From: Kofleriaceae bacterium
Lineage (GTDB): Bacteria; Myxococcota_A; Polyangia; Haliangiales; Haliangiaceae
Direction of reading: 5' to 3'
Assembly: GCA_046597055.1 (NCBI GenBank)
Contig: JBKJLC010000212.1
Location: 1 to 35,206 of the forward strand
Length of the DNA: 35,206 nt
Of this stretch, positions 5,141 to 28,946 are shown one piece after another; the stretch's first letter is position 1, and every line of letters starts with the position of its first letter. The notes under the pieces are model-generated. The model was not told where the DNA came from and ran no database searches. It saw nothing but the letters and a program-made list of their open reading frames with translations. The translations under genes were made by a program, and so were the position numbers.

Positions 5141-5557
5141 GTGGAGCTCGCCTGGACCGCCCACCCGGCCAAGCGCCAGCCCGAGCAGATCGCGCTGATC
5201 GCGGCGATCGTCCTGGTGACGGCGTGGGTGGTGATGGTGACCCTGGAGTCGCCGTGGCTGGCGCTGGTCGCCGCGGTGATCCTGGTGGTGTCGGTCGGGC
5301 AGTTCCTGTTCCCGACCCGGTACCGGCTGACCGACGCCGGGGTGGAGGAGCGCCGCCTGCTCGGGCGCAAGTTCCGGGCGTGGAGCGATCTGCGCCGGAT
5401 CCAGGTGGGCCCCGGCGCCGCGCTGGTGTCGCCGTTCGCGCGACCGAGCTGGATGGACCGCTACCGCGGGATCATGCTGTACCTCGATGGCGCCGATCGC
5501 GACGCGGTGGTCGCGGCCCTGCGCGCGCGCATCCCGGCCGCGGACCCGGCGCCGTGA
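5141..5557 (+). CDS. Two-TM membrane protein with a C-terminal bacterial PH-like domain
   Basis: Two hydrophobic helices followed by TRYRLTDAGVEERRLLGRKFRAWSDLRRI, a typical bacterial PH-like pattern. Starts 4 nt after the previous stop. Confidence 0.75.
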   Translation: MELAWTAHPAKRQPEQIALIAAIVLVTAWVVMVTLESPWLALVAAVILVVSVGQFLFPTRYRLTDAGVEERRLLGRKFRAWSDLRRIQVGPGAALVSPFARPSWMDRYRGIMLYLDGADRDAVVAALRARIPAADPAP

Positions 5558-5841
5558 CCGTCCCGCCCGAGACGCTCGAGGCCAGCCTGTCCGAGGCCGA
5601 GCGCGAGCTGCTCGACAGCCTGGCCGACGGCATCGCCCGGCGCCGGCTGACCCCGGCCGCGCTGTTCTTCCTCGAGTCGATGAAGCCGATGGGCTTCCTC
5701 GGCAGCCAGATGATGGTGTTCCTGCGCCCGATCGTCGCCATCATCTGGCGCGACCCGGCGCGCTGGGACCAGCTCCAGGCCATCCTGGAGCGGCGCGGCT
5801 CGATCGAGTTGCTGCTGCGGCGGCTCGAAGCGCGCTCGTGA
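5554..5841 (+). CDS. Small helical hypothetical protein (95 aa)
   Basis: GTGA overlap with the upstream stop. Translation MTVPPETLE...LTPAALFFLESMKPMGFLGSQMMVFLRP...IELLLRRLEARS. Strong GC3 bias. Confidence 0.8.
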   Translation: MTVPPETLEASLSEAERELLDSLADGIARRRLTPAALFFLESMKPMGFLGSQMMVFLRPIVAIIWRDPARWDQLQAILERRGSIELLLRRLEARS

Positions 5842-5857
5842 TACACCCGGCCGGCCG

Positions 5858-7693
5858 ATGTCGAGCCACGCCACGCCGAGCTACCCGCCGATCGATCCCG
5901 CGCGCGTCCGGTCGGTGATCGCCACCGACTGCGGATCGACGACGACCAAGGCGATCCTGATCGAGAAGAACGAGCAGGGCGAGTACCGGCTGCGCTCGCG
6001 CGGCGAGGCGCCGACCACGGTCGAGGCGCCGGTCGAGGACGTCACCCGCGGCGTCATCAACGCCGTCCGCGAGATCCAGGAGCTGCGCGGCCGTCAGTTC
6101 CTCACCGACGACGGCACCGCGATCATCCGGCCCGAGAAGGACGGGGTCGGCACCGACCTGTACCTGTCGACCTCGTCGGCCGGCGGCGGGCTGCAGATGA
6201 TGGTCGCCGGCGTCGTCAAGAAGATGACCGCCGAGAGCGCTGCCCGCGCCGCCCTGGGCGCCGGCGCGATCGTGATGGACTCGATCGCCACCAACGACAA
6301 GCGCCTGCCGCACGAGAAGATCGACCGCATCCGCCAGCTGCGGCCCGACATGATCCTCATGGCCGGCGGCACCGACGGCGGCACCGTCAAGCACGTGGTC
6401 GCGATCGCCGAGCTCCTGCGCGCGGCCCAGCCCCGGCCCCGGCTCGGCCAGGGCTACGACCTGCCGGTGATCTACGCCGGCAACCGCGAGGTCCGCGCCG
6501 AGGTCGAGCGCATCCTGGGTGGCAAGGTCGCGCTGCAGTTCGTCGACAACCTGCGGCCGACCCTCGAGGAGGAAAACCTGGGCCCGGCCCGCGACGCGAT
6601 CCACGACCTGTTCATGGAGCACGTCATGGCCCAGGCCCCCGGCTACGGGAAGCTGATGACCTGGACCGACACGCCGATCATGCCGACCCCGGGCGCGATG
6701 GGCCTCATCATCAAGGCGCTGGCCGAGCGCGACAAGGTCAACGTGGTCGGCGTCGACATCGGCGGCGCCACCACCGACGTGTTCAGCGTGTTCGACGGCA
6801 GCTTCAACCGCACGGTCTCGGCCAACCTCGGCATGAGCTACTCGGTGTCGAACGTGCTCGCCGAGGCCGGCATCGATCAGATCCAGCGCTGGGTCCCGTT
6901 CGACCTGCACGAGGCCGAGCTGCGCGACCGGATCGGCAACAAGATGATCCGGCCGACCACGATCCCGCAGACGCTCGAGGAGCTGAAGATCGAGCAGGCG
7001 ATCGCGCGCGAGGCGCTGCGGCTGTCGTTCATCCAGCACAAGCAGTTCGCGGTGAAGCTGACCGGCGGCCAGAAGGAGAGCTCGATCTCCGACGCGTTCA
7101 GCCAGGGCACCACCAACACGCTGGTCGACATGATGACGCTCGACCTGCTGGTCGGCTCGGGCGGCGTGCTCAGCCACGCCCCGCGCCGCAGCCAGTCGAT
7201 GCTCATGATGATCGACGCGTTCCAGGTCGAGGGCATCACCGAGATCGCGGTCGACTCGATCTTCATGATGCCGCACCTGGGCGTGCTGTCGACGGTGCAC
7301 CCGGCGGCGGCGACCGAGGTGTTCGAGAAGGACTGCCTGGTCCGCCTGGGCACCTGCGTCGCGCCGGTCGGCGTGGCCAAGCGCGGTCCGCCGTTGACGA
7401 TCGAGCTGCGCATGCCCGGCGGTACCACCAGGACCGAGCGGCTCGCCGCCGGCAGCCTGACCCACCTGGCGCTCGGCGCGGGCGAGACCGCCCATGCCAT
7501 CCTGACCCCGGCCCGCGGCGTCGACGTCGGCGGCGGCCCCGGCGAGAAGGTCGAGCGCACCCTGCGCGGCGGCGTGGTCGGCCTGGTCTTCGATGCCCGC
7601 GGGCGCCGACCGATGAACGTGCCGACCGCCCACGACGCGCGGGTCACCGCCAACCTGGCCTGGACCGGCGCGATGGACCTGTACCCGGCCTGA
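5858..7693 (+). CDS. glmL: GlmL/MutL (glutamate mutase L) family ASKHA-fold ATPase
   Basis: Phosphate-1 ATDCGSTTTK, family motifs STSSAGGGLQM, AARAALGAGA, PDMILMAGGTDGG, VIYAGN and IMPTPGA, phosphate-2 GVDIGGATTDVFS, RTVSANLGMSYS, adenosine motif VGSGGVLSHA. The symbol indicates family only. Confidence 0.88.
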   Translation: MSSHATPSYPPIDPARVRSVIATDCGSTTTKAILIEKNEQGEYRLRSRGEAPTTVEAPVEDVTRGVINAVREIQELRGRQFLTDDGTAIIRPEKDGVGTDLYLSTSSAGGGLQMMVAGVVKKMTAESAARAALGAGAIVMDSIATNDKRLPHEKIDRIRQLRPDMILMAGGTDGGTVKHVVAIAELLRAAQPRPRLGQGYDLPVIYAGNREVRAEVERILGGKVALQFVDNLRPTLEEENLGPARDAIHDLFMEHVMAQAPGYGKLMTWTDTPIMPTPGAMGLIIKALAERDKVNVVGVDIGGATTDVFSVFDGSFNRTVSANLGMSYSVSNVLAEAGIDQIQRWVPFDLHEAELRDRIGNKMIRPTTIPQTLEELKIEQAIAREALRLSFIQHKQFAVKLTGGQKESSISDAFSQGTTNTLVDMMTLDLLVGSGGVLSHAPRRSQSMLMMIDAFQVEGITEIAVDSIFMMPHLGVLSTVHPAAATEVFEKDCLVRLGTCVAPVGVAKRGPPLTIELRMPGGTTRTERLAAGSLTHLALGAGETAHAILTPARGVDVGGGPGEKVERTLRGGVVGLVFDARGRRPMNVPTAHDARVTANLAWTGAMDLYPA

Positions 7694-7720
7694 GCGCGCC
7701 GACGGGCTGACCCGGCGCGC
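7694..7720 (+). terminator. GC-rich hairpin directly after the glmL-like stop (possible terminator or processing stem)
   Basis: GCGCGCCG ... CGGCGCGC inverted repeat. No U-tract. Confidence 0.35.
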
Positions 7721-7809
7721 GACGACCTCGCGGCGTGCTGCCCGGGATCGATCGCGGCGTCGCCGTATCTATAGATGAAGCAGCGGGAAGGCTCGGAGGG
7801 CTGGCGCGG

Positions 7810-7837
7810 TTGACCCCAAAGGGCCCCTGCGTATGAT
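7810..7837 (+). promoter_or_regulatory. Candidate internal sigma70 promoter TTGACC-N16-TATGAT
   Basis: TTGACC 7810-7815 and TATGAT 7832-7837, both 5/6 consensus. ATG is 12 nt downstream with no SD. Perfect palindrome ATCTATAGAT at 7767-7776 upstream. Confidence 0.6.
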
Positions 7838-7849
7838 GCCCCCGCCTTC

Positions 7850-8962
7850 ATGGGAGACGCCTACACACCTGGCCTCACGGTCACCCGCAGCACGGTCGTG
7901 CGCAAGAGTCGCCGGCTGCCGCTGCCCGGCGACGTGCTCCGCAAGGTCGGTGATCGGGTCGAGTCACACGACGTCATCGCCCGCACCGATCTGCCCGGCA
8001 AGGTCCACCTGCTCAACCTGGCCACCGCGCTCGGCGCTCTGCCCGACGAGCTCGCCGGCAAGCTGCTGATCCAGCCGGGCGCCGCGATCCGCAAGGGCCA
8101 GTCGATCGCCGAGAGCAAGAGCTTCTTCGGGCTGTTCACCGCCCGCGCGCTGTCGCCGATCGACGGCACGCTCGAGTCGGTGTCGGAGGTGACCGGCCAG
8201 GCCGTCCTGCGCGAGCCGCCGGTGCCGGTCGAGGTCAAGGCCTACGTCGACGGCAAGGTCGTCGAGATCCTGGCGGGCGAGGGCGTGGTCGTCGAGACCG
8301 AGGGCGCGCTCATCCAGGGCATCTTCGGGCTGGCCGGCGAGGTGGTCGCGCCGCTGGTCATGATCGCGACCCGCCCCGATCAGCCGCTCGAAGCGTCGGA
8401 TCTCAAGCCCGAGCACAAGGGCCGGGTGGTCGTCGGCGGGGGTCGGGTCAGCCTGGCCGCGATGCGTCGCGCGATGGAGCTCGGCGTCGCCGCCGTGGTG
8501 TCGGGCGGCTTCGCGTACCAGGACGTGAAGGAGCTGCTCGGCTACGACGTCGGCGTCGCGATCACCGGCGGCGAGGCGCTGGCCACCACGCTGGTGGTGA
8601 CCGAGGGCTTCGGCGACATCGCGATGGCGACCGCCACCTTCGAGCTGCTGCGCAGCCTCGAGGGTCGGATCGCCTCGGTGTGCGGCGCGACCCAGATCCG
8701 CGCCGGCGTGATCCGGCCCGAGGTCGTCATCCCGGGAACCAGCCAGGGCAACCGCGCCCAGGCCGAGGCCGGCGGCCTCGACATCGGCGCGCCGGTCCGC
8801 TGCATCCGCGCGCCGTACTTCGGCCGGATCGGCACCGTCAGCGCGCTGCCGGTCGAGCTGGAGACCATGCCGTCCGAGACCCGGGTCCGCGTCCTCGAGG
8901 TCGACCTCGGCGGCGAGAAGATCCGGGTCCCGCGCGCCAACGTGGAGGTGATCGAGCGATGA
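7850..8962 (+). CDS. Uncharacterised soluble protein: barrel-sandwich-hybrid repeats, central alpha/beta domain, C-terminal KOW/SH3-like domain
   Basis: GDVLRKVGDRVESHDVIA and PGAAIRKGQSIAE...SPIDGTLESV resemble biotinyl-lipoyl/RnfC-N hybrid motifs. C-terminus LDIGAPVRCIRAPYFGRIGTV...RVPRANVEVI is KOW-like. Confidence 0.85.
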   Translation: MGDAYTPGLTVTRSTVVRKSRRLPLPGDVLRKVGDRVESHDVIARTDLPGKVHLLNLATALGALPDELAGKLLIQPGAAIRKGQSIAESKSFFGLFTARALSPIDGTLESVSEVTGQAVLREPPVPVEVKAYVDGKVVEILAGEGVVVETEGALIQGIFGLAGEVVAPLVMIATRPDQPLEASDLKPEHKGRVVVGGGRVSLAAMRRAMELGVAAVVSGGFAYQDVKELLGYDVGVAITGGEALATTLVVTEGFGDIAMATATFELLRSLEGRIASVCGATQIRAGVIRPEVVIPGTSQGNRAQAEAGGLDIGAPVRCIRAPYFGRIGTVSALPVELETMPSETRVRVLEVDLGGEKIRVPRANVEVIER

Positions 8963-10407
8963 GGCGGTGTGCCCACGCGTGTCTCGCCGGCTTGCCGGCC
9001 CTCGTCCTCGCGAGCGCGATCGCGTCCGCCCAGCCGCTGCCAGCGGGCGCCACGCCGGGCGGCGCCCCCGCCGGTGCCGAGCAGCCGGCCACCGACCGGC
9101 TGGCGCCTGTCGATCAGCCGGTGTCGCCGCCGCCGGTCGAGCCTGTGCCGCCGGTGCCCGCCGCGCCGCCGCGGGTCGAGGCCCTGCGGTCGCTCGACGT
9201 GCAGCCGCTGAAGAACGACGACGGCAAGCACCTGCAGCTCACCTTCGAACGGCCGGTGCAGGTCGCTCAGGACATGGTCTCGACCATCGCCTTCCGCCGC
9301 AAGCACGGCGTGGCGAACGCCCCGCCGGCGTACCCGGTCGTGGCCGAGCCGGTCGCTGGCACCCTGCGCTGGTCGCCCGACTTCCTCGCCGGCGCCGCGC
9401 CAGCCGCCGCCGAGGCCGCGCCCCTCGACGCCTCGACCCCGCTCAAGGCCGGCGACACGGTCGGTCCGTGGACGGTCGCCGCCGTGCTCGAGGCCGGTGA
9501 GACCAGCCTCAAGGACGAGGTCGCGCCCAGCACCGCGTACGAGTACGTCGTGGTCGAGGCCCGCCGCGACGGGGACGGCAAGCTGCTCGCGATCTCGCCC
9601 GGGCTCGTGATCGGCCCGCGCGTGCCCGAGGCCGCGCTGTTCCACACCGAGCGCTGGGGCTACCTCCTCATCGTCCTGCTCATCTCCGGCCTGATCGCCT
9701 TCTACATCCGGCTGGCCAAGGCGCGGCCCAAGGAGATCTTCATCCGCCGCATGCCGGGCGTCGATGCGCTCGAGGACGCGGTCGGTCGCTCGACCGAGAT
9801 GGGCCGCCCGGTCCTGTACGTGACCGGCCTGGAGGAGATCCAGGACATCATGACGATCGCGTCGCTGCTCATCCTCGGCCATGTCGCCGAGTTGACCGCG
9901 CACTACGACACCGAGATCAAGGTCGCGAACTACTTCCCGCTGACGATGGTCGTCGCCGAAGAGATCGTGCGCCAGGGCTACGCCAACGCCGGTCGTGCCG
10001 ACGCCCACCGCCCCGAGAACGTCCTGTTCATCACCGCCGAGCAGTTCGCGTTCGCGGCCGGCGTCAACGGCATCATCCTGCGTGACAAGCCGGCGACCAA
10101 CATCTACTTCGGCAAGTTCTTCGGCGAGTCGCTGCTGCTGGCCGAGACCGGCTACATGACCGGCGCGATCCAGATCGCCGGCACGGCCGAGCTGCCGCAG
10201 CTGCCGTTCTTCATCGCCGCCTGCGACTACACCCTGATCGGCGAGGAGCTGTACGCGACCTCGGCGTACCTGTCGCGCGAGCCGACGCTGCTCGCCAACC
10301 TCAAGGCGGGCGACGCCTTCAAGCTGCTCGCGATGCTGTTCATCGTGGTCGGCACCGCGCTGGCGACGGCAGGCGTCTTCCACCTGGCCCCCAAGGTGTT
10401 TCCATGA
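8959..10407 (+). CDS. Membrane protein, DUF6754-like: signal peptide, Pro-rich/FN3-like exported part, TM, soluble domain, TM
   Basis: ATGA overlap at 8959. Signal peptide, Pro-rich linker, FN3-like strand LKDEVAPSTAYEYVVV, TM YLLIVLLISGLIAFYI, then IRRMPGVDALEDAVGRSTEMGRPVLY...LPFFIAACDYTLIGEELYATSAYLS, which I recall as DUF6754-type. Confidence 0.8.
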   Translation: MRRCAHACLAGLPALVLASAIASAQPLPAGATPGGAPAGAEQPATDRLAPVDQPVSPPPVEPVPPVPAAPPRVEALRSLDVQPLKNDDGKHLQLTFERPVQVAQDMVSTIAFRRKHGVANAPPAYPVVAEPVAGTLRWSPDFLAGAAPAAAEAAPLDASTPLKAGDTVGPWTVAAVLEAGETSLKDEVAPSTAYEYVVVEARRDGDGKLLAISPGLVIGPRVPEAALFHTERWGYLLIVLLISGLIAFYIRLAKARPKEIFIRRMPGVDALEDAVGRSTEMGRPVLYVTGLEEIQDIMTIASLLILGHVAELTAHYDTEIKVANYFPLTMVVAEEIVRQGYANAGRADAHRPENVLFITAEQFAFAAGVNGIILRDKPATNIYFGKFFGESLLLAETGYMTGAIQIAGTAELPQLPFFIAACDYTLIGEELYATSAYLSREPTLLANLKAGDAFKLLAMLFIVVGTALATAGVFHLAPKVFP

Positions 10408-11315
10408 AGAAGCTGGTGCCGCTGGTCTTCGGCATCCTGTTCGGCCTGTACGCGGTCGCCGAGTTCTACATCCCGCATCACGACGTCGGCGAGCTGACCG
10501 ACGAGTTCCGCAACTGGGCTGGCATCCTCACCGCCGCCGCCTTCGTGCTGGGCGGGCTCAACATCCTGCAGGTCACCTGGCCCAAGATCCGGCGCCGCGA
10601 GCCGGACTGGGGCTACAAGGTCCTGCTGCTGTCGGCGGCCGCGGTCATGGTGCTGGTCGGCCTGCCCTGGCACAAGCTCGGCGATCGCGCCGAGCCAACC
10701 TCGGCGATCACCGCGGCGACCGACGTCGCGGCCGGCCAGGCGCGGGTCGTGGTCGAGGCGCCCGCCGACGTGGTGGTCCAGGTCGGCAGCGTGGTCGCTG
10801 CCGCGAAGGATGCCGGCGGCAAGCCGTTCACGGTCGAGGTCGCCCCCGGCTTGATCGAGATCAAGCTGTCGCGCCGCGCCGCCGGCTACGAGGCGCAGGT
10901 CGCGACCGTCACCGTGGCCGCCGGGCAGCTGGCAACCGTCGCCGGTGACCCGCCGACCCTGTGGGGCAAGGAGGGCCGGGTCTTCGTCTGGCTCTACGAC
11001 CACGTGTTCGCGCCGTGCAACTCGACCATGTTCGCGTTGCTGGCGTTCTTCGTGGCGTCGGCGGCGTTCCGCGCCTTCCGCGCCCGCAACACCGAGGCGG
11101 CGCTGCTGCTGACCGCGGCGATCGTGATGATGCTCGGTCGCGCGCCGCTGGGCCGCGCGCTGTGGGATGCGCTGCCCGACATCGCGCAGTGGCTGCTCGA
11201 CGTCCCCAGCAACGGCGGCCGGCGCGCGATCATGATGGGCGCGGCGGTCGGCGCGATCGCCACCGGCCTGCGCGTGATCGTCGGGCTCGAGCGCTCGCAC
11301 CTGGGGAGCGACTGA
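10404..11315 (+). CDS. Polytopic membrane protein with a PEGA-like loop insertion
   Basis: ATGA overlap. About 6 hydrophobic helices. Motifs STMFALLAFFVASAAFRAFRAR and GGRRAIMMGAAVGAIATGLRVIVGLER. Beta-rich insert at about 10731-10940. Confidence 0.85.
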   Translation: MKKLVPLVFGILFGLYAVAEFYIPHHDVGELTDEFRNWAGILTAAAFVLGGLNILQVTWPKIRRREPDWGYKVLLLSAAAVMVLVGLPWHKLGDRAEPTSAITAATDVAAGQARVVVEAPADVVVQVGSVVAAAKDAGGKPFTVEVAPGLIEIKLSRRAAGYEAQVATVTVAAGQLATVAGDPPTLWGKEGRVFVWLYDHVFAPCNSTMFALLAFFVASAAFRAFRARNTEAALLLTAAIVMMLGRAPLGRALWDALPDIAQWLLDVPSNGGRRAIMMGAAVGAIATGLRVIVGLERSHLGSD

Positions 11316-12214
11316 TGGCGACCAACCCGTCCACGCCGCACTGGACCGACCGGCTCCAGTCGTTCGACCGCCGCTGGATCTTCCTGGCGATGAGCCTGGC
11401 GATCGTGGTGCCGCTGTTCTTCCCGCTCGGCCTGCCGGCCAAGCCCGATCAGATGACCAAGGCCGCCTACAACGCGGTCGAGGCGCTGCCCCCAGGCGCG
11501 CGGGTGTTCGTGTCGCTCGACATGGACCCGGCGTCGACCCCCGAGCTCGAGCCGTTCTTCAAGGCGGTGATGCTCCAGCTCAAGCGCAAGAACGCGAAGC
11601 TGGTGTTCGCGACCACCTGGTACTCGGCGCCGCCGCTGGTCGAGCGCTACATGCGCGAGTCGGTCGAGGGCACGCTGGCCCCGGCCGGGACCGAGGGCTA
11701 CAGCGGGCTGCCCGACCGGCCGTACGTGAAGAACGTCGACTACGTCAACCTCGGCTTCCGCGACGGCAAGGGCGCCATCATCCAGCTGTTCGGCTCCGAC
11801 CTGCGCAAGGCGTTCGACGGCCGCGCCAACGACGGCACCGCGCTCGACCGCATCCCGATGCTGAGCGGCATCAAGCAGCTCAAGGACTTCGATCTGATCG
11901 TGCTCGTCAACGCCGGCTTCCCCGGCGCCAAGGAGTACGTCCAGTTCGTCGGTACCCGCTACAAGCTCAAGATGATCACGGCGTGCACCGCGGTGTCGAC
12001 CACCGACCTGGCGCCGTACTTCCAGACCGGCCAGCTGGTCGGCCTGGTCGGCGGCATGGCCGGCGCCGCCGGCTACGAGCACCTGGTCGGCAAGAAGGGC
12101 GCGGGCACCTCGGGGGCTGACGTGCTCAACGTCGGCAACCTGGTCGTGATCCTCGCGATCGTGCTCGGCAACATCATCTACTTCGTCAGCCCCAAGAAGC
12201 GGGGACGGAGGTAG
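11315..12214 (+). CDS. Membrane protein: TM, about 230-aa alpha/beta domain, TM
   Basis: Start at ATG 11315 (TGATG overlap, GGGGAG SD). DRRWIFLAMSLAIVVPLFFP...DYVNLGF...LAPYFQTGQLVGLVGGMAGAAGYEHLV...VVILAIVLGNIIYFV-SPKKRGRR. Confidence 0.85.
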   Translation: MATNPSTPHWTDRLQSFDRRWIFLAMSLAIVVPLFFPLGLPAKPDQMTKAAYNAVEALPPGARVFVSLDMDPASTPELEPFFKAVMLQLKRKNAKLVFATTWYSAPPLVERYMRESVEGTLAPAGTEGYSGLPDRPYVKNVDYVNLGFRDGKGAIIQLFGSDLRKAFDGRANDGTALDRIPMLSGIKQLKDFDLIVLVNAGFPGAKEYVQFVGTRYKLKMITACTAVSTTDLAPYFQTGQLVGLVGGMAGAAGYEHLVGKKGAGTSGADVLNVGNLVVILAIVLGNIIYFVSPKKRGRR

Positions 12215-12216
12215 TC

Positions 12217-13215
12217 ATGCCCGCGCTCGCGCTCATCGACGTCGTCGGCGTGTGGTTGGGGATCTTCCTCACCTTCTGCATCCTGTCGTTCCTCTACGAC
12301 GACAACCCCTTTTACAAGCTGGCCGAGCACCTCTTCATCGGGATCTCGGTCGGCTACCTGATGGTGCTGCAGTACAACGACAACCTTCACCCCAAGCTGT
12401 TCGTCGCGCTGGGCGAGAAGGAGGGGCTCGATCTGTTCCTGCGCCTGGTCGGCGCGGTCCTGGTCGTCATGCTGTTCGTGAAGGCGATCTCGCGGAAGTG
12501 GGCCTGGGTCGGCCGCTTCCCGCTGGCGTTCGTGGTGTCGTTCTACGCCGGCCTCCAGATCAACGCGGTCGCGCAGGCCGAGCTGGGCGCGCAGATCGCG
12601 TTCGCGGCCGGCACCCTCGACGAGACCAAGGTCGACCTGAACACCGCGCCGCCCGACAAGCTCACCGCGGTGCCGGGCTCGTCGCCGCTGATCGCCGAGA
12701 AGCTGCTGGTCGCCCGCGCCGAGCGGCCGTTCATCAGCCTCGACGACGCCGCCACCCGGCCGACCCTGACCCCGGCCGAGCAGGCCGACCTGGCCGCCGC
12801 GCGGGGTCCGCTGGTCGGGCTCGACGCCAACGCCGACGTCCGGCCGGGCCAGCGCAACTGGTTCGGCGTGGTCTCGAACGTCCTGCTGCTGCTCGGGCTC
12901 CTGACCTCGCTGGTCTACTTCTACTTCTCGGTCCCGCACACCGGCGCGGTCGGGCGCATCTCGCGCATCGGCGTCTGGGTGCTGATGGTCGGGTTCGGCG
13001 CCAGTTTCGGCCTCACCGTGCAGGGGCGCCTGGCCCTGGCGATCGGCCGCGCGTACGAGGTGCTCGGCCGCACGTTCAGCCCGGCCGACGCGGCCCAGAT
13101 CCGCGCCCCCTACGTGTCGGTGATCTCGATCGCGATCATCATCCTCGGCATCGCCGGCTGGGAGCTGCGTCGCCGCAAGGACGCGGGCCACGCTGGCACC
13201 GCCGGGAAGACCTGA
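12217..13215 (+). CDS. Polytopic membrane protein with an inserted ComEA-like helix-hairpin-helix domain
   Basis: GGAGG SD. About 7 TM segments. Motifs LSFLYDDNPFYKLAEHLFIGISVGY and LMVGFGASFGLTVQGRL. Insert VDLNTAPPDKLTAVPGSSPLIAEKLLVARAERPFISLDDA. Confidence 0.85.
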   Translation: MPALALIDVVGVWLGIFLTFCILSFLYDDNPFYKLAEHLFIGISVGYLMVLQYNDNLHPKLFVALGEKEGLDLFLRLVGAVLVVMLFVKAISRKWAWVGRFPLAFVVSFYAGLQINAVAQAELGAQIAFAAGTLDETKVDLNTAPPDKLTAVPGSSPLIAEKLLVARAERPFISLDDAATRPTLTPAEQADLAAARGPLVGLDANADVRPGQRNWFGVVSNVLLLLGLLTSLVYFYFSVPHTGAVGRISRIGVWVLMVGFGASFGLTVQGRLALAIGRAYEVLGRTFSPADAAQIRAPYVSVISIAIIILGIAGWELRRRKDAGHAGTAGKT

Positions 13216-13233: not shown

Positions 13234-14631
13234 ATGTCGTACGAGTGGCAGATCGGTTGGCGCTACCTGTACGCGGGCAAGCGCGATCGCGGCATGCTCA
13301 CCGGCTGCCTGGTCTCGCTCGGGGTCTCGGCGGCCGGGCTCGGCCTGCTCGCCGTGTCCGACGGCGGCTCGCCGGTCGGCGTGGTGACCTTCCTGCTCGG
13401 GCTGATCTCGGCGGCGGTGTTCGGGCTCTTGTCGGTGCTGTCGGTGTCGGTCGCGGTCGCCGTGCTCGGGGTGGTGCTCGGCGTCGCCGCGCTCACCGTG
13501 GTGCTGTCGGTGACCAGCGGCTTCCAGGACCAGTTCCGCGAGAAGGTGCTGGGGGTCAACGCCCACGTCATCATCATGAAGAGCTCGACCGACTTCGCGG
13601 AGTACCGCGAGGTCATGGACACCGCGCGCACGATCGATCGTGACGTGATCGCGGTGCAGCCGTTCATCTTCGTCGAGATGCTGGCGACCACCGGCAAGGG
13701 CCGCATCGCCGGGGTCGCGATCAAGGGCGTCGATCCCGACCGGGTCCGCGGCGTGCTCGATCTCGACAAGCACATGATCGAAGGCTCGGTCGCGGCGCTG
13801 TCCGAGCCGCCGGCCGAGGGCCAGTCGCCGCCGATCATCATGGGCAAGGAGCTGGCCCGCAAGCTGCGCGCGAAGATGGGCGACGAGATCACGGTCGTGG
13901 TCCCGATGTCGAACGTCGACCTCGAGACCTGGCGGACCACCGCGGCGGCGCCGCGCACGCGGCGGTTCAAGGTCGCCGGGGTGTTCTACAGCGGCTTCGA
14001 CGAGTACGGCCGCCGGCTGATGTACACCAGCCTGCGCGAGACCCAGGCCCTGCTCGAGCGCGGCGACAAGGTCATGGGCGTCGAGCTCAAGGTCCGCGAC
14101 GTGGCGCGGGCCCAGGCGATCGCCAACAAGCTGTCGGTCCGCCTGGGTGAGCCGCCGTTCCAGGTCCAGGACTGGTACGAGCTCAACCACAACCTGTTCA
14201 AGGCGCTGACCATGCAGAAGGCGGCCTTGTTGATCGTGCTGTTCCTGATCATCGCGGTCGCCACGGTCAACCTGATCTCGGCGATGGTGATGATGGTGAC
14301 CGAGCGGATCCGCGAGATCGCGATCCTGAAGTCGATGGGCTCGCCGTCGCTCGAGATCGGCTTCGTGTTCACCATCGTCGGCACCGCGATCGGCGCGGTC
14401 GGCACGCTGGTCGGCATCGGCCTCGGCGTCTCGACCTGCGTGGTCGTGCGCAGCTACGGCTACCGGCTCGACCCCAAGGTCTACCTGATCGACCAGCTGC
14501 CGATCAGCGTGCGCCCGTCGGAGATCGCGCTGGTCGCCGGCATGACCATGCTGATCTGCCTGGTCGCGACGCTGATCCCGACCTTCAAGGCCGCCGCGCT
14601 GCGCCCGGTCGACGGCCTGCGCCACGACTGA
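13234..14631 (+). CDS. lolC: Lipoprotein-releasing ABC transporter permease, LolC/E family
   Basis: YEWQIGWRYL, LGVAALTVVLSVTSGFQDQFREKVLGVNAHV, DWYELNHNLFKAL, ERIREIAILKSMG, VYLIDQLP, AAALRPVDGLRHD. LolC versus LolE is not resolvable. Confidence 0.92.
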   Translation: MSYEWQIGWRYLYAGKRDRGMLTGCLVSLGVSAAGLGLLAVSDGGSPVGVVTFLLGLISAAVFGLLSVLSVSVAVAVLGVVLGVAALTVVLSVTSGFQDQFREKVLGVNAHVIIMKSSTDFAEYREVMDTARTIDRDVIAVQPFIFVEMLATTGKGRIAGVAIKGVDPDRVRGVLDLDKHMIEGSVAALSEPPAEGQSPPIIMGKELARKLRAKMGDEITVVVPMSNVDLETWRTTAAAPRTRRFKVAGVFYSGFDEYGRRLMYTSLRETQALLERGDKVMGVELKVRDVARAQAIANKLSVRLGEPPFQVQDWYELNHNLFKALTMQKAALLIVLFLIIAVATVNLISAMVMMVTERIREIAILKSMGSPSLEIGFVFTIVGTAIGAVGTLVGIGLGVSTCVVVRSYGYRLDPKVYLIDQLPISVRPSEIALVAGMTMLICLVATLIPTFKAAALRPVDGLRHD

Positions 14632-14670: not shown

Positions 14671-15333
14671 TCACGGCTCGATGACGTCGGGCGTGGCGGT
14701 GACCACGTCGAGCGCGAGGTCGTGCAGCACGACCAGCTCGCCGAGGTCGTCGATCACGCCGTCGACCCGAGCGGTGATCGATGCGTGCATCTGACCCGCG
14801 GCGTCGCGCGTGACCGCGACCGCGAACGGCGCGCTGGGGATGCGGCGCATCGCCAGCGGCAGCACGTCGCCGCGCCACGACAGCATCGCCCAGTCGAGCA
14901 GCAGGTCGGCCCGGCCGTAGCCGATCATCGTGTTGCTGTCGTCGGGCAGGTTGCCGAGCGGCTGGATCGCGAGCTGGGTGCCGAGACGGAGCGACAGCTC
15001 GGTGATCGTGACCGGCCGGTTGCCGAGCAGGCCGGCGGGCACGATGACGTCCTCGAGCGGGAGCTCGAGGTCCTCGACCAGGAGCCAGCCGTCGGTGGTG
15101 GTGCGCAGCACGGCTTCGCCGCCGAGCACCGACGGGTCGACCGCGACCATGCGGCCGCCGGCCGCCATCGCCGACACGTCGACGTTGCTCTGGGTCGACA
15201 CGTCGAGCGTGACGCGGCGGCGCAGCTGGGCCGCCAGGTCCTCGTCGCCGGCGGCCGGCTCGAAGGTGCAGCCGGTGCCGGCGAGGGTGAGGCCGGCGGC
15301 GGCCGCGAACAGGAACGATCGGACGTTGGTCAT
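14671..15333 (-). CDS. Putative lipoprotein, beta-rich, unknown function
   Basis: Start ATG 15333 (GGAGG SD, ATGA overlap with the TetR stop). MTNVRSFLFAAAAGLTLAGTGC has a lipobox-like Cys. Confidence 0.75.
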   Translation of the reverse strand: MTNVRSFLFAAAAGLTLAGTGCTFEPAAGDEDLAAQLRRRVTLDVSTQSNVDVSAMAAGGRMVAVDPSVLGGEAVLRTTTDGWLLVEDLELPLEDVIVPAGLLGNRPVTITELSLRLGTQLAIQPLGNLPDDSNTMIGYGRADLLLDWAMLSWRGDVLPLAMRRIPSAPFAVAVTRDAAGQMHASITARVDGVIDDLGELVVLHDLALDVVTATPDVIEP

Positions 15334-16007
15334 GGTGCCTCCACGCGGGTGGGGGATAGGGACAAGGGATACGGGCGCGCGGCGGCCGCGAGCACGTCGA
15401 CGATGGCGGCGAGCCGCTCCTCGTCGAGCTCGGGACGCGAGCGGGCCGACCAGCCGAGCTTGGCGGCCCAGTCCTCGGCGGACAGGTGCCACGAGACGCA
15501 CAGGTCGACGACGGTGATGAGCAGGTGCGGGGCCGACACGTCCTTGCGCAGGGCGCCGGTCGCCTGACCCTCCTCGACCCGATGAACCAGCCGCGCCATC
15601 AGCGCGCGGGTCAGCTCGAGATGGGCACCCTCGCCGAGCAGGATGCGGCGCATCGCGAGCGTCCACCCGAGCAGGCGGACCAGCTCCGGGTGGCGGCCGA
15701 GGAACCGGAAGAAGCTGCGGGTGCCTTCGCACAGCCCCTCGAGATCGGGCCGGGTCTGAAGGAACTCCAGGTGCGACTCGAGGAACGCGGTCAGCGGGCG
15801 GACCAGCACCTGGTCGAACAGCGCTTCCTTGGTGCGGAAGTAGTGATGGACCAGGCCGCGGTTGACCCCGGCCTTGGTGCTGATGTCATCGATGCTGGTC
15901 GCGCCAGGCCCGAGCCGGGTGAACAGGTCGGTCGCGGCAGCGAGAATCCGGGCCTTGGTCCGCTCCGCATCGCGGATGCGGGGCTCGGTCGTAACGCGCC
16001 GCGGCAT
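15330..16007 (-). CDS. TetR/AcrR-family transcriptional regulator
   Basis: RDAERTKARILAAATDLFTRLGPGATSIDDISTKAGVNRGLVHHYFRTKEALF is a TetR HTH. ATG 16007 preferred over GTG 16016. Confidence 0.93.
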   Translation of the reverse strand: MPRRVTTEPRIRDAERTKARILAAATDLFTRLGPGATSIDDISTKAGVNRGLVHHYFRTKEALFDQVLVRPLTAFLESHLEFLQTRPDLEGLCEGTRSFFRFLGRHPELVRLLGWTLAMRRILLGEGAHLELTRALMARLVHRVEEGQATGALRKDVSAPHLLITVVDLCVSWHLSAEDWAAKLGWSARSRPELDEERLAAIVDVLAAAARPYPLSLSPTRVEAP

Positions 16008-16010
16008 GAG

Positions 16011-16032
16011 GAACACAATTAGTCGTGTGTTC
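16011..16032. promoter_or_regulatory. Candidate TetR autoregulatory operator GAACACA-N8-TGTGTTC
   Basis: Perfect 7-bp inverted repeat 3 nt upstream of the TetR start codon, inside an AT-rich island. Confidence 0.55.
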
Positions 16033-16259
16033 TATTCAGGCAAGGGGCAGACGCTGAAACTATACTTAAGCTGCTGTAATTGCTTACATAAAAACTGAAT
16101 AAAAGTTCATGAAACAGACTCGGAAATCTCGTTCATCGCCCAGCTGGGCCGTCCAGGACGGGCGAATTCCGTTCACGGAACCGACCAGGGACGACGGCAG
16201 GTGGGATCGCTCGATCCCGTGGCGACTCGTCATCGAGGCTGAGGGCAGGGGCGAGCCGC

Positions 16260-18197
16260 TTACAGGTCGAGCCCGTCGGCCTTGCAGGCGCGCCGCACGG
16301 CGCGCGTGACCTGCGGACGCGAAACCCGTCGCAAGGCCGCCGACGCTGCCTCGCGATCCCCGAGGGCACACGCTGCCCGCGCCCGCAGCGCCCACGCGTT
16401 CTGAGCCTTGGGATGTTCGTTGGTCAGCCGCTTGGCGATCCGCAGCGCCTCGTCCGGATCCCCGCTCGCGAGCGCGCGGTCGCCGGCCGCGATTCCCTGG
16501 CGCAGGGTCGGGTCGTCGTCCCCGCCCGCGTCAGGGTCGGCCGCCACACCCGCATCCGGCTTCGCCCGCGCGGTCCCCACGTCGACGCGCGGCCGCGCAC
16601 CAGCATCGGTCGGCGCAGCCGTGCCCGCATCGACCGCGACCGCCGGACCGCCCTCGAGCCCGTCGACGCCCGCCGGCGCAGCGTCCGCCATGGCGAGCGC
16701 GTTCGGGCCTGCATCGACCCCGAGTCCAGCCGCGACGGCACTACCGCCACCGCTGTTGCCGGCGCTGCCGCTGCCGCTGCCGGTGCTGCCGCTGCCGCTG
16801 CCGCTGCTGCTGCTGCTGCTGCTGCCGCTGCTGCTATTGCTGCTCGTGTTGGCCGCGCCACCGCCGCCACCCCCGACCGCCAGCACCACCGCGACCGCAA
16901 CCCCGGCCGCCAGCACCGCCGTGACCGCAATGATCACCCCGGTCCGGCTCTTCCCGCCCGCCCCCGGTTCCGTCCTCCCCCCCGGTATCGGCACGGTATC
17001 CGCGGGCCCCTCGTCTCCCATCACCCCCATGCCCGCCAACGTCCCGCCCCCGCCGCTCCCCATCACCCCTCGCGCACTCTCACCCGCACCGCGGTCCCCT
17101 GGCACCCCGGCCATCGTCTGCGCGGCCGCCAGTGACGTCCGCACGTCCGCCACCATCGCGCCCGCGTGATCGCCAGATCCGACGGTCGCCGCGAACGCAT
17201 CCTGCCCGGTCGCCCGCGGCCCCCCGAGGCTCCCGCCGGGCCCGCCCGCCCCGCCCGGGCTCAGCGCCGCGGTCGCCACACCACTCGGCGTGCCATCACC
17301 CGGCGCGGCCACCAGCCCGCGCCGGCCTGTCTGCAGCGGAGCGCCGGTGAGCGCCTCGACGAAGCTGCCCACGTCGTCCCACCGATCGGCCGACTTCTTT
17401 TCGAGCGCGCGGTGCACCGCCGCGACCACGTACGGCGGCAGCCCCGGCATCCGGTCCGCCAGCGACGGCGCCTCCTCGTACACCACCTTGAACACGACCT
17501 CGGGAATCGTCATCCCGCCGAACACCGGCGCCCCGCACAGCATCTCGTACACGACCGCGCCGAGCGCGAACACGTCGGTGCGGCCGTCGACCGCGTCGTG
17601 GCGGCCCGTCGCCTGCTCGGGCGACATGTACTGCGGCGTGCCGAGCATCGCGCTGTCCTGCGTCTTCACCGTGGTCGAGCCGCGGATCTTCGAGATGCCG
17701 AAGTCGAGGACCTTGGCCTTGACGCCCATCCCGTCGTCGGTCGGGACCAGGAAGATGTTCTGCGGCTTCAGATCGCGATGCACGATGTGCTCGCGATGCG
17801 CGGCGGCCAGCGCCGAGCCGACCTGGCGCACCACCAGCGCGACCTCGTCGAGCGACATCGGCCCGCGGCGCAGGCGGTCGGCCAGCGACTCGCCGCGCAG
17901 CAGCTCGAGCACGATGTACGGCGTGCCGTCGGGCAGCTGGTTCCAGTCGTGGACCTCGACGATGTTGGGATGACCCAGCCGGGACGCGATCTCGGCCTCG
18001 CGTCGGAAGCGGGCGAGCGCCTCGCTGTCGGCGACGTCGGGGTGCAGCACCTTGATGGCGACCTTCTTGCCCGGCAAGCGCGCGTGGCTGGCGATGAAGA
18101 CCTCGCCCATCCCGCCGGTCCCGATCAGCCCCTCGATCGTGTACGTGCCCGCGATCACGGACCCCACGGCCAGCGCGCGGGCGGATGAATGGGCCAT
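16260..18197 (-). CDS. Membrane-anchored Hanks-type Ser/Thr protein kinase with a C-terminal TPR-like helical domain
   Basis: IGTGGMGEVF, VAIK, HRDLKPQN, DFG, GTPQYMSPE, TDVFALG. TM VIIAVTAVLAAGVAVAVVLAV, Ser/Gly linker, two Cys in the terminal helical hairpin. Start is 18197 or 18206. Confidence 0.95.
   Translation of the reverse strand: MAHSSARALAVGSVIAGTYTIEGLIGTGGMGEVFIASHARLPGKKVAIKVLHPDVADSEALARFRREAEIASRLGHPNIVEVHDWNQLPDGTPYIVLELLRGESLADRLRRGPMSLDEVALVVRQVGSALAAAHREHIVHRDLKPQNIFLVPTDDGMGVKAKVLDFGISKIRGSTTVKTQDSAMLGTPQYMSPEQATGRHDAVDGRTDVFALGAVVYEMLCGAPVFGGMTIPEVVFKVVYEEAPSLADRMPGLPPYVVAAVHRALEKKSADRWDDVGSFVEALTGAPLQTGRRGLVAAPGDGTPSGVATAALSPGGAGGPGGSLGGPRATGQDAFAATVGSGDHAGAMVADVRTSLAAAQTMAGVPGDRGAGESARGVMGSGGGGTLAGMGVMGDEGPADTVPIPGGRTEPGAGGKSRTGVIIAVTAVLAAGVAVAVVLAVGGGGGGAANTSSNSSSGSSSSSSSGSGSGSTGSGSGSAGNSGGGSAVAAGLGVDAGPNALAMADAAPAGVDGLEGGPAVAVDAGTAAPTDAGARPRVDVGTARAKPDAGVAADPDAGGDDDPTLRQGIAAGDRALASGDPDEALRIAKRLTNEHPKAQNAWALRARAACALGDREAASAALRRVSRPQVTRAVRRACKADGLDL
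16764..16844. repeat. Low-complexity (GCT)n/(GCTGCC)n tract encoding the kinase Ser/Gly linker
   Basis: gctgccgctgccgctgcc...gctgctgctgctgctgctgctg encodes SSNSSSGSSSSSSSGSGSGSTGSGSGS on the minus strand. Confidence 0.9.
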
Positions 18198-18223
18198 CGC
18201 GGTCATCGTATAGTGAAGATCAC

Positions 18224-19021
18224 ATGCGCGCAGCCCCGTCCGCCGTTGCCACCGCCGCGATCGCCTCGTTGCTCCTCGTTGCCACCCACGAGTCGGCCTC
18301 GGCCCGGCCGCGCAAGAAGACGGTCAAGGACGACGTCGAGGACATCAGCAAGGCCAAGCCGGACCTGGTGGTCCTGCGCGACGACGAGGGCGACGTCTAC
18401 GTCCTGGAGAACGCCTGGAAGGCCGAGCACTGGCTGTTCTACGGCGACGGCAAGACGATGTACCGGCAGCGCGTGTTCGGCGGCGGCGCCGACGGCTCGG
18501 CCGGCACGTTCTCCTACAACATCTGGTCGCCGCGGGTCGCGCGCGCCGAGCTCGGCAAGCGCAAGGGCAACGAGTACTACCTGACCTGCGGCGACGAGGA
18601 CGTGATCCTCAAGAAGGTGCCCGACGCCGACGCGCGCAAGGTGCTCGACGGCGCCGCCTTCAAGAAGTCGTACTGGAAGCGCCAGGCCGCCGCGCTCGCC
18701 CGCGACGACGCCGGCAACTACTACTACGTCGACCGCATGCGCGACGAGTTCGGTGGCAAGGCCCACCGCACCTTCGCCGGCCCCAAGGGCGGCATGAAGG
18801 AGCTGCCCATGACCAACGTGGTCTCGGATTCGGTCGGCGAGATCTACGCGACCAAGCGCGGCGAGCTGCGGTTCGTGACCTCGGGCGGCACCGCGAAGTG
18901 GATCAAGGGCAACGTCAAGCTCGACCTCACGATCATCCCGCCGTCCGACAACATCCAGCTGATCTACAGCGAGCTCGGCGTGTACGACGGCTCGCTCGGC
19001 ACGCCCTGCGACGACATGTGA
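18224..19021 (+). CDS. Secreted hypothetical protein, beta-rich
   Basis: ATG 18224. Signal peptide MRAAPSAVATAAIASLLLVATHESASA. Motifs LFYGDGKTMYRQ, LARDDAGNYYYVD, NVVSDSVGEIYAT and C-terminal LGTPCDDM. Very strong GC3 bias. Confidence 0.85.
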   Translation: MRAAPSAVATAAIASLLLVATHESASARPRKKTVKDDVEDISKAKPDLVVLRDDEGDVYVLENAWKAEHWLFYGDGKTMYRQRVFGGGADGSAGTFSYNIWSPRVARAELGKRKGNEYYLTCGDEDVILKKVPDADARKVLDGAAFKKSYWKRQAAALARDDAGNYYYVDRMRDEFGGKAHRTFAGPKGGMKELPMTNVVSDSVGEIYATKRGELRFVTSGGTAKWIKGNVKLDLTIIPPSDNIQLIYSELGVYDGSLGTPCDDM

Positions 19022-19346
19022 TCACCCTCCGGGCGTGGCGGGCACGCGCCGCGACGCCGCGGGTCCGGCGGGGTGAGCGTGGCGTCGCTGGCGGTGGGCT
19101 CCGGCGGGATCGCAGGCAGCCGGGGCTCCGGTTCGTCACGCGAGCGCGACCGTGCCGCCCCAGGGCGGACGTGAACCAAGGTGACGACGCCGGGGTTCCC
19201 GGCCAGGACCACCCCGGGCCGCGCGACGAACGCAAGGCATCGAACCGCCTTGCCATGGCCGCATGATCCGCCGGCGGTCGGGCCGGTGCGCGCGCCCGCC
19301 GGGCGTTGAGCCGCTCGCGGGCGCGGTATACGCTGGCGACGTGCAA

Positions 19347-20786
19347 ATGAGACGGGTTCTCGCCGTGGCGACCATGGCGATCGGGACGCTGGCCTCCAGC
19401 TGTTTCACCGTGACCAACGAGCTCTTCTGTTGCTCCACCGAGGCGTCGTGCGCCGACCGGGGCGTGACCTCGATCAAAGGTTGCGACCCCAGGTCGAAGT
19501 TGAACGTCTGCGACGACCAGGGCGTGATCGGTGGCGTTTCCAACACGTGCGTCGAGGATCCGATCAGCTCGCCGTGCGACGAGGTGCTCATGTGCGCCAC
19601 CCCGGCCCGGCCGGTGTGCGACGATGACACCGACAGCTGCGTGCGGTGCACCGCCTCCGCCGAGTGCGCCGCCTTTCCGGCCGAGCCGCTGTGCTCGCCG
19701 ACCAGCGGCGAGTGCGTCGAGTGCCTGACCGCGTCCGACTGCGCCGATCCGGATCGACCGGTCTGCGGCAGCAGCAGCGCGTGTCGCGCGTGCGTCGCGC
19801 ATGACGAGTGCGCGTCCGGCGCCTGCGACAAGGTGACTGGCGCGTGCGTGGCCGAGGCCGAGCTGGTCTTCGTCGACCCGACCGGCGGCGGGACGGCCTG
19901 CACGCGGGCGGCGCCGTGCGCGACCATCGCCGCCGGCGTCGCCGCGACCAGCATCACCCGCCGCTTCGTGCAGGTGAGCCCGGCCAGCTACAGCGAGCGG
20001 GTCGCGGTCGTGGGCCGCAGCTTCACGCTGCTCGGCGCGGGCGCCGATCTCAGCGCGATGACGATCGGCCCACTGTTCGACATCCAGGCCGCCAGCACCG
20101 TGACCATCGAGGGCTTGCGCATTCACGACGGTGCCGGCTCGATGGCCGCCACCCTGGGCGACGGTGTCCGCTGTTCGGACAACAACGGGCCGTCGACGGT
20201 GACGCTGCGCGACGTCCGGCTCGAGAACAACAGCGGGCGTGGGGTGGTCGCGACGAACTGCACGGTCACGGTGGCCGGTGGTCGCGTCTCCGGCAACGTG
20301 GTCGGCGGCGTCCAGGTGACCGGCGGCAACGCGACGATCCGGAACAACTTCATCGCGCGCAACGGCGGTCCCAATTCGACCATCGGCGGAGTCGACCTGG
20401 TCACCCCGGCCATGCTGGTCTTCGAGTTCAACACGGTCGTCGACAACATGACCACGACCGGCTTCGCCGCCGGCGTGCAGTGCCGGTCGGGCATCGCGCG
20501 GACGCTGGCCAACAACATCGTGGTCGGCCAGGTGTCCGATCAGGTCTCGGCCACCAACTGCACGTTCGCGTACACCCTCTCCAACGAGGTGATCGGCGGG
20601 GCCACCAACAGCACGACGGCGCCCGGCTTCGTGGATGGCCCGTCGGGCGACTTCCACCTGGTGCCCGGCTCGGCCGGGATCGACGCCGCCGACCCGGCCG
20701 CCACGCTCGCGGTCGACATCGATGGCCAGCCGCGTCCGGTGCCGGGGGCCGGGCGCGCCGACATCGGCGCCGACGAGGTCCAGTGA
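19347..20786 (+). CDS. Cys-rich lipoprotein with right-handed parallel beta-helix repeats and a choice-of-anchor-Q-like C-terminus
   Basis: Lipobox LASSC. Repeats CVRCTASAEC, CVECLTASDC, CRACVAHDEC. Motif CTRAAPCATI. Asn-ladder strands (IRNNFIARN, FNTVVDN). C-terminus DFHLVPGSAGIDAA...DIDGQPRP...DIGADE. In-frame GTG at 19341 is an alternative start. Confidence 0.85.
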   Translation: MRRVLAVATMAIGTLASSCFTVTNELFCCSTEASCADRGVTSIKGCDPRSKLNVCDDQGVIGGVSNTCVEDPISSPCDEVLMCATPARPVCDDDTDSCVRCTASAECAAFPAEPLCSPTSGECVECLTASDCADPDRPVCGSSSACRACVAHDECASGACDKVTGACVAEAELVFVDPTGGGTACTRAAPCATIAAGVAATSITRRFVQVSPASYSERVAVVGRSFTLLGAGADLSAMTIGPLFDIQAASTVTIEGLRIHDGAGSMAATLGDGVRCSDNNGPSTVTLRDVRLENNSGRGVVATNCTVTVAGGRVSGNVVGGVQVTGGNATIRNNFIARNGGPNSTIGGVDLVTPAMLVFEFNTVVDNMTTTGFAAGVQCRSGIARTLANNIVVGQVSDQVSATNCTFAYTLSNEVIGGATNSTTAPGFVDGPSGDFHLVPGSAGIDAADPAATLAVDIDGQPRPVPGAGRADIGADEVQ

Positions 20787-20807
20787 AGCGGTGTCGCCCG
20801 TCCTCGA

Positions 20808-22226
<1,419 letters not shown>

Positions 22227-22358
22227 CCCGGATTGGTACCGCCTTCTGTGCCTGGGAACCAGGCCGAGTGCCGGGCCGACCTGCCCGAAATGTCGGGTGG
22301 GTCGGCGGGTGCGAGCCGCGACGAAGTGGGCCAGAATAGTCGGGTCATGGTGATCCGG

Positions 22359-22691: not shown

Positions 22692-22709
22692 CCACGGAGT
22701 AATCTCGCC

Positions 22710-25022
<2,313 letters not shown>

Positions 25023-25044
25023 AAGGCGCGTGGGACCCGGGGGC

Positions 25045-26670: not shown

Positions 26671-26704
26671 CTGCGCCACCTCGACCAAGTCAGGAGCTCT
26701 CGAC

Positions 26705-28938: not shown

Positions 28939-28946
28939 GGCACCTC

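Follow-up and report, generated by a model that had tools for sequence, protein, structure and literature searches.

A conserved eight-gene set pairs a long-clade GlmL/MutL-type ATPase with multiplied membrane cassettes and may form a modular ATP-driven importer

Several described systems resemble parts of the gene set reported here. In energy-coupling factor (ECF) transporters, a shared EcfAA'T module works with exchangeable S components, and some ATP-binding cassette (ABC) importers share an ATPase. The diol and glycerol dehydratase reactivases DdrA/GdrA have an ASKHA-family ATPase working with a swivelling domain, and in the PilM/PilNOP, FtsA and MreB systems an actin-fold ATPase is tied to inner-membrane proteins. 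Closest to the ATPase considered here are GlmL/MutL and Or-4, and GlmL is called a reactivating chaperone in a figure legend that cites a diol dehydratase study (PMC4682846). We analysed a window of 35,206 nucleotides (nt) from a Kofleriaceae bacterium (GCA_046597055.1, contig JBKJLC010000212.1, forward strand; genome 94% complete), in which eight genes, g1 to g8 in order (5141..13215, all +), combine a long relative of GlmL with a four-gene membrane cassette, g5-g8. The set is annotated after a B12 enzyme to which no link was found, and we put at about even (0.5) the probability that it imports solutes as a modular, ATP-driven system of a kind not yet described. The features of the run, with protein lengths in amino acids (aa) and transmembrane helices abbreviated TM, are as follows.

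g1, 5141-5557, +: 138 aa; a pair of hydrophobic helices at the N-terminus, with a PH-like domain; normally part of the single-copy module but can be absent
g2, 5554-5841, +: 95 aa; small helical protein without a family; core single-copy member
g3, 5858-7693, +: 611 aa; ASKHA (actin/Hsp70-fold) ATPase by sequence, long GlmL/MutL clade; PF13941
sigma-70-like site TTGACC-16-TATGAT, 7810-7837, +: 12 nt upstream of the g4 start; pattern match only
g4, 7850-8962, +: 370 aa; soluble partner with predicted barrel-sandwich hybrid repeats, swivelling beta/beta/alpha domain and KOW/SH3 domain
g5, 8959-10407, +: 482 aa; N-terminus resembling a signal peptide, then a variable outer region and DUF6754 (a conserved cytoplasmic alpha/beta domain between two TMs)
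g6, 10404-11315, +: 303 aa; polytopic, about 6 helices; conserved RAFRAR loop and GxERSxLG tail; lineage-specific outer insert of 100 aa
g7, 11315-12214, +: 299 aa; outer Rossmann-like domain flanked by two TMs; varies more than any other soluble part of the cassette
g8, 12217-13215, +: 332 aa; polytopic, 6-7 helices; invariant LYxDNP and YFxFS motifs; ComEA-like helix-hairpin-helix (HhH) insert

The original prediction, made from the letters of the window, had described eight co-directional genes with given overlaps, gaps and lengths, and all open reading frames (ORFs) and junctions were found again: from g1 to g8, the genes are joined by a GTGA overlap, gaps of 16 nt and 156 nt, two ATGA overlaps, a TGATG overlap and a gap of 2 nt. 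The named relatives closest to the window, whose G+C content is 70-75%, are Kofleriaceae and other Myxococcota; G+C at third codon positions (GC3) is 0.95-0.98 in all eight ORFs, and each of g1-g8 is single-copy in its own genome. Neither Walker A, LSGGQ nor CxxC was found in any of the eight proteins, which bears out the earlier statement that no ABC, iron-sulfur (Fe-S) or flavin motif is present.

By its sequence, the g3 protein is an ASKHA-family ATPase of a long GlmL/MutL clade. It matches PF13941 at E 7.9e-128 (427 bits), with Hydantoinase_A as the next-best Pfam family (E 2.5e-7), and scores below the cut-offs of GlmL/MutL NF040745 (235 bits against 475), Or-4 NF040744 (217 against 600) and TIGR01319 (174 against 204). 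Residues D24-K31, D300-D307 and G433-G436, which we take to be the phosphate-1, phosphate-2 and adenosine motifs of ASKHA proteins, are invariant in 37/37 aligned relatives, so that the ATPase motifs (DCGSTTTK, VDIGGATTD, GSGG) are intact, as had been claimed. The connect-1 region, where many ASKHA ATPases have a catalytic glutamate, reads PTPGA. The protein resembles GlmL/MutL and Or-4 in family, in the three nucleotide motifs and in an inserted alpha/beta domain, but is only 27% identical to true GlmL and Or-4 as against 62-80% to members of its clade, extends about 110 residues further at the C-terminus, and stands, without a mutase, among seven fixed partners that are missing from true GlmL and Or-4. 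Kinship was judged by these identities because, in a 24-row g3 tree whose careful search was unfinished, the branches to GlmL and Or-4 were saturated. PDB sequence searches with g3, g4, g5 and g7 returned no significant match, and no PilM/FtsA/MreB-type family in Pfam or NCBIfam matched g3.

A scan of GTDB with g3 returned at least 581 species-level relatives, of which the best 80 loci (61-87% identical) were examined up to 10 kb around g3, the window's own locus being left out. These carry the labels Myxococcota, Poribacteria, Marinimicrobia, Zixibacteria, Ignavibacteria, Eisenbacteria, Latescibacteria, WOR-3, Sumerlaeota and Planctomycetota. Near g3 were found g4 at 49 loci, g2 at 48, g5 at 42, g6 at 40, g7 at 38, g8 at 36 and g1 at 26, with g3-g8 all together in 35/80; many of the misses are short contigs or split clusters. 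Whole-genome searches were conducted in 50 of the 80 g3 genomes, picked to include cases of lone g3 and to thin out close kin, and detected DUF6754 (matched by g5 at E 7.6e-104), g4 and g2 in 49 each and g1 in 41, while g1 and g2 were each found in 0/10 control genomes without the cassette. In Poribacteria the parts are widely separated along the chromosome, and all are retained. A second set of 80 metagenome loci, selected by g8 and independent of the g3 set, held g7 at 75, g6 at 60 and g5 at 48, always in the order g5-g6-g7-g8, and the five loci without g7 begin at a contig edge. Gene order and content thus hold across many phyla, as the original prediction required.

Within its own phylum, in 201 genomes drawn regardless of g3, DUF6754 and PF13941 were each detected in 23, both in 22, only one in 2 and neither in 177. 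The two exceptions are G104 (94% complete), in which the cassette is present and g3 and g4 were not found, and G118, whose PF13941 proteins are described below. A Planctomycetota chromosome (G048, L099:2786-5284) has an intact g3 and a truncated g4, with g1, g2 and DUF6754 not found, and its set is possibly decayed. As related genomes are not independent, no P value is given for these co-occurrences.

The single-copy and cassette genes differ in number. One g3 match was found in 47/50 genomes, and the copy number of g4, g2 and g1 tracks that of g3, whereas 19/50 genomes have 2-6 DUF6754 matches (a few of them fragments), 17 of these genomes with one g3. The cassette paralogues are old, grouping across genomes, and within a genome they are 57% identical in the inner g5 domain (median, 59 pairs) and 38% in the outer g7 domain (45 pairs). 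In addition, in two genomes that also carry the ordinary set, a g3 paralogue that has diverged to 43-45% identity is joined in one chain to g4's hybrid and swivelling domains (L104:467-3007, +; L105:9946-12651, -). These fusions keep the TQ.R.GV.RP loop, lack the g4 KOW domain and the g3 C-terminal domain, and have no cassette nearby. The association of the ATPase with the membrane genes, as originally predicted, is thus one of co-occurrence and gene fusion, and the ATPase may power the membrane proteins. The set is present in 21/61 genomes of the window's order and 2/32 of one genus, a patchiness that suggests it is dispensable in the manner of a nutrient system. Relatives of g7 form 5,569 clusters at 50% identity; viral contigs held no g5 relative, and plasmids held no g5 or g4 relative.

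The link to B12 enzymes implied by the annotation was examined with three mutase families, glutamate mutase E (PF06368), PF09043 (lysine/ornithine aminomutase) and acyl-CoA mutases; diol dehydratase and ethanolamine ammonia-lyase lay outside this search. If g3 reactivated a B12 mutase in trans, in the manner ascribed to GlmL, with the membrane genes as unrelated passengers, its PF13941 membership would be explained, and acyl-CoA mutases do occur in 37/50 g3 genomes. However, PF06368 exceeded its cut-off in 0/50 of these genomes and PF09043 in 1/50 (the PF09043 search gave a match in G049 and none in 14 control genomes), and neither family was found in the window's own genome. Twelve genomes (G006-G017), eight of them single-chromosome assemblies, hold the system and have none of the three families. 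Conversely, the two short PF13941 proteins of G118 are a true GlmL and a true Or-4, encoded beside glmS/glmE/mal and oraS/oraE (arrangements at L095 and L094, respectively), and this genome lacks DUF6754, g4, g2 and g1. These counts agree with the original view that long-clade proteins can do without a B12 mutase in trans; its statement that the window has no B12-binding gene also holds, 0 of the genome's 8 B12-binding matches lying on this contig. A reactivase acting in trans is largely refuted and close to excluded.

The predicted structure of g4 (pLDDT 87.9) contains the barrel-sandwich hybrid and KOW/SH3 domains that had been expected, and also a swivelling domain that had not. The hybrid domains resemble RnfC and NqrA (Z 7.4-7.5, root-mean-square deviation (rmsd) 2.0-2.6, 64 residues), the swivelling domain resembles enzyme I of the phosphotransferase system (PTS; Z 9.6, rmsd 2.7, 105 residues) and RraA (Z 9.6, rmsd 3.1, 126 residues), and the KOW/SH3 domain resembles the NusG KOW domain (Z 8.4, rmsd 1.4, 53 residues, 28% identity), with NdhS, PsaE and Tudor domains matching about equally well. 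The top Foldseek hit for g4, Thermotoga NusG, has a TM-score of 0.15, which shared small domains explain. A role as phospho-, biotinyl- or lipoyl-carrier was ruled out, because g4 has no conserved histidine or cysteine among 39 sequences and the tip of its hybrid hairpin is hydrophobic (F92-F93-G94-L95-F96) where carriers have a lysine; K90 is found in 27/39 only. The GATQIRAGV.RPE loop is invariant in the alignment and is a candidate switch for the g3 ATPase.

Like DdrA/GdrA, the set pairs an ASKHA ATPase with a swivelling domain, on two genes or fused, but it has no dehydratase partner nearby, adds hybrid and KOW domains and is linked with a membrane cassette, and the 50 fold matches listed did not include DdrA. 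The PTS, with its mannose-family IIC/IID proteins, similarly has a shared soluble module with several membrane complexes, whereas the set lacks the phosphocarrier histidine and the phosphoenolpyruvate-binding barrel and has ATP-type motifs instead. Rnf and Na+-NQR share the hybrid domain and the presence of several membrane subunits, but the set has no CxxC, flavin mononucleotide-attachment or NADH-binding parts, and its membrane subunits are unrelated. Of the other single-copy members, g2 has no Pfam or NCBIfam match and a conserved PA.FLE.KP motif, and g1 matches bPH_6 below the cut-off (E 6.5e-4).

In the cassette, neither g6 nor g7 has a Pfam family above cut-off. The lysine plus arginine (K+R) charge bias of g5 is 4.35 after and 1.73 before its first TM, which places the DUF6754 domain in the cytoplasm, and that of g7 is 3.6 and 3.9 at its two ends and 1.4 and 1.7 beside its domain, which suggests that the g7 domain lies outside with both ends inside, opposite to that of g5. 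The appendages of relatives agree with this topology, as FN3, PQQ propellers and RHS occur on the g5 ends and CARDB and HEAT inside the g7 domain; other lineages carry different domains in their outer loops. Many relatives are almost without an outer appendage, g5 then being only 263-312 aa. The g5 core has a cysteine in 46/49 sequences and a threonine in 3/49, and g5 matched no IIB family. The g7 model (pLDDT 89.0) shows a Rossmann-like domain between two helices, with a best fold match of Z 8.9 to generic Rossmann folds only, and a protein atlas search returned only nameless clusters for g7 and no usable match for the g5 core. Polar residues are conserved in or at the membrane helices, of which the cassette has about 16 in total: E37, R271 and R278 of g8, H275 and N286 of g7, and D235 and K238 of g5 (core alignment numbering). 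Family, profile, PDB and fold searches matched the membrane genes to no characterised complex, in line with the original prediction. That account was right in gene content; what it lacked was the g4 swivelling domain, the ratio of ATPase to cassettes, the contrasting orientation of g5 and g7, and an insert in g8.

This ComEA-like insert (residues 136-187, window 12622-12777; HHH_3 E 9.3e-5, below cut-off) is present in 20/21 loci of the window's order, the remaining one having been missed by the search pattern, and PF12836 is annotated in 94/120 of the closest g8 relatives. It is predicted to sit in an outward-facing loop, and DNA binding is doubtful because its motif is mostly PGxSP rather than the GIG of an intact GxG HhH motif; the insert looks intact in L074 (E 1.1e-10). 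Fusions of g7 and g8, joined through an added helix, occur in 3/150 representatives. Origin of the cassette by internal duplication was considered and rejected: for g5 against g7 and g6 against g8, hhalign probabilities are 1.5-4.6% and hidden Markov model (HMM) scores are at background level. The secondary-structure order of these pairs looks similar by eye, and they may share a fold. Unusual arrangements include DUF6754 behind a PMT-type glycosyltransferase membrane domain (P0318, one case among 120 long forms), a DUF6754 gene without adjoining g6-g8 in a genome with a full cassette elsewhere (L102:8620-9549; L103), and genes inserted between g6 and g7, for a phosphatase-like protein (L207:7166-8344) or for a DNA methylase and a STAS protein (L208:5071-7622).

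Gene content, co-occurrence, the copy ratio, the fusions and the predicted g4 and g7 folds are the basis on which we read the set as an importer, and topology (from the charge bias), docking, energy coupling, transport and its direction are what we infer. The single-copy cytoplasmic module of g3, g4 and g2, usually anchored to the membrane through g1, would dock on the conserved inner face of a cassette, where g4 would probably complete the g3 ATPase or switch it on. The DUF6754 domain, with the conserved loops of g6 and g8 on the inner side, would relay the nucleotide cycle to the membrane path, and the variable outer domain of g7, with the appendages of g5, g6 and g8, would determine which solute is captured. 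One ATPase module could serve all the cassettes of a genome, much as several S components share an energising module in ECF transporters. Like ECF transporters and ABC importers with a shared ATPase, the set appears to have one energising module serving several scattered membrane modules, but those systems use a P-loop ATPase with Walker A and LSGGQ and share no subunit homology with the set, whose exchangeable unit would be four proteins. An importer fits best because there is one conserved soluble motor, the modules vary on the outside but are conserved on the inner side, conserved polar residues occur in their roughly 16 helices, and the distribution is patchy; one cassette class also lies beside D,D-peptidase and sugar-ABC genes. 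The broader proposal, a new class of primary active transporter in which an actin/Hsp70-fold ATPase motor, in place of an ABC, P-type or rotary ATPase, drives interchangeable four-subunit permeases in many uncultured phyla, we hold at slightly short of even odds, and peptide or cell-wall fragments as the substrate are a weak guess.

Several observations weigh against an importer. No subunit matches a transporter family or a solved transporter in family, PDB or fold searches, the set contains no solute-binding protein, and we know of no transporter energised by an ASKHA ATPase. Binding-protein lobes match g7 (Z 7.3-7.7) no better than unrelated Rossmann folds do, and the FN3, propeller, CARDB, HEAT and HhH appendages are of scaffold type and would fit an envelope machine or a receptor equally. 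The neighbouring genes vary by lineage with no shared catabolic theme, and each neighbour theme, including a link to D,D-peptidases, probably rests on one lineage, which weakens the clue to a substrate.

Actin-fold ATPases dock on membrane platforms in the PilM, FtsA and MreB systems, and g3 might likewise organise a platform that serves in secretion, adhesion, motility or remodelling of the wall. Such an envelope or surface machine would suit the outer FN3 repeats, PQQ propellers, RHS, CARDB, HEAT and HhH domains and the local neighbours, which include LolC/E-like genes (in the window and at L001, L004, L074 and L211), Tol/Exb genes at 5 loci, and D,D-peptidases. The set differs from those systems in having no sequence match to their families and none of their partner genes (pilNOP, ftsQZ, mreCD) among 87 scanned neighbours; nor are pilin, secretin, MreC/D, SEDS or penicillin-binding protein (PBP) genes constant among the neighbours scanned. 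With up to six whole cassettes for a single ATPase, outer appendages nearly absent from many relatives, and the set not found in 40/61 genomes of the order, we consider an envelope machine unlikely. A membrane-bound ATP-dependent enzyme, in which g3 transfers phosphate to a substrate like its hydantoinase-A/oxoprolinase relatives, for group translocation or for activation at the membrane, or a Na+/H+ pump would account for the second-best Pfam match of g3, the two carrier-type folds of g4, the g5 cysteine and the placement of one cassette class near ptsI. This we regard as improbable, as g4 has neither the conserved residues nor the hairpin lysine of a carrier, Fe-S and flavin motifs are lacking in all eight proteins, and pumps rarely keep six divergent membrane sectors. 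Alternatively, the many-to-one ratio and the variable outer parts could mean that the cassettes are receptors converging on a g3/g4 switch, the NusG-like KOW domain contacting the transcription or translation machinery. That domain, however, is about as close to NdhS, PsaE and Tudor domains and is absent from the divergent fusions, some 16 helices with conserved polar residues exceed what a receptor needs, and no regulator or output gene was seen to travel with the set in the neighbour scans; signalling is rated a little lower again.

The 156-nt gap between g3 and g4 holds a sigma-70-like site, and the site search gave 3 sites against 0.4 expected. The CGTAT of its -10 box is kept in 4/4 aligned relatives, and g3 and g4 are often apart in close relatives (L001, L002, L003, L029). 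This site is probably an internal promoter for g4-g8, and on its account we propose that the run probably comprises two transcription units, ech-g1-g2-g3 and g4-g8-lolE. The co-directional run includes, besides g1-g8, an enoyl-CoA hydratase gene (4-nt gap) and a LolC/E-like gene (18-nt gap), which belong outside the conserved set since the hydratase is found at 3/80 and lolE at 4/80 loci. The LolC/E-like permease (13234-14631, +), directly 3' of g8, has extra N-terminal helices, and no LolD-type ATPase was found among the neighbouring ORFs scanned in the window. The rest of the window (15330-35195) encodes TetR, a Ser/Thr kinase with TPR (16260-18206, -), an M20 peptidase, clpS-clpA, a 2OG-Fe(II) oxygenase, argininosuccinate synthase and a PLD-like protein, with several long ORFs at 26000-33000 that have no Pfam family. 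No RNA element is listed for the locus in the RNA family look-up.

Family scans of 87/147 neighbour representatives from the g3 loci, together with the genes around 28 separate cassettes, gave no substrate clue that holds across phyla. One paralogue group lies beside D,D-peptidases in 7/9 tree rows plus L197, and also beside sugar-ABC genes. At eight loci (L196, L197, L199, L200, L203, L206, L209, L110), about 6 kb at most separates this cassette class from a gene for a D,D-peptidase of the peptidase S11 family; an amidase, DgcN, or the binding protein and permeases of a sugar-ABC system are often encoded there too. Another group lies beside ptsI, pgi and metK, and others beside glycine-cleavage, Opp or Tol genes. 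At seven loci (L032, L033, L035, L043, L051, L066, L067), glycine-cleavage genes are upstream and a lipoate ligase gene downstream, an adjacency that is probably due to chance because g4 has no lipoyl lysine. In one lineage, a secreted-looking protein of 265 aa with a C-terminal helix and no Pfam family is encoded between g3 and g4 at 7 loci (L075:11840-12634).

In the literature searched, with most subscription journals and supplements outside its reach, no description of this gene set was found, DUF6754 included. As the ATPase falls below the cut-offs of the named families and no known machine matches, we class the gene system, on sequence grounds, as new, with a predicted function; the promoter-like site before g4 and the ComEA-like insert in g8 are new in the present analysis. 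With at least 581 GTDB species-level g3 matches, the set is large and highly conserved across phyla, and its label, "glutamate mutase L", can lead metabolic reconstructions astray in Poribacteria, Marinimicrobia, Zixibacteria and others. Should the set prove to be a transporter, it would represent a new way to couple ATP to membrane transport, and whatever its function, the eight parts, their inferred topology and the natural fusions define a complex fit for expression and assay.

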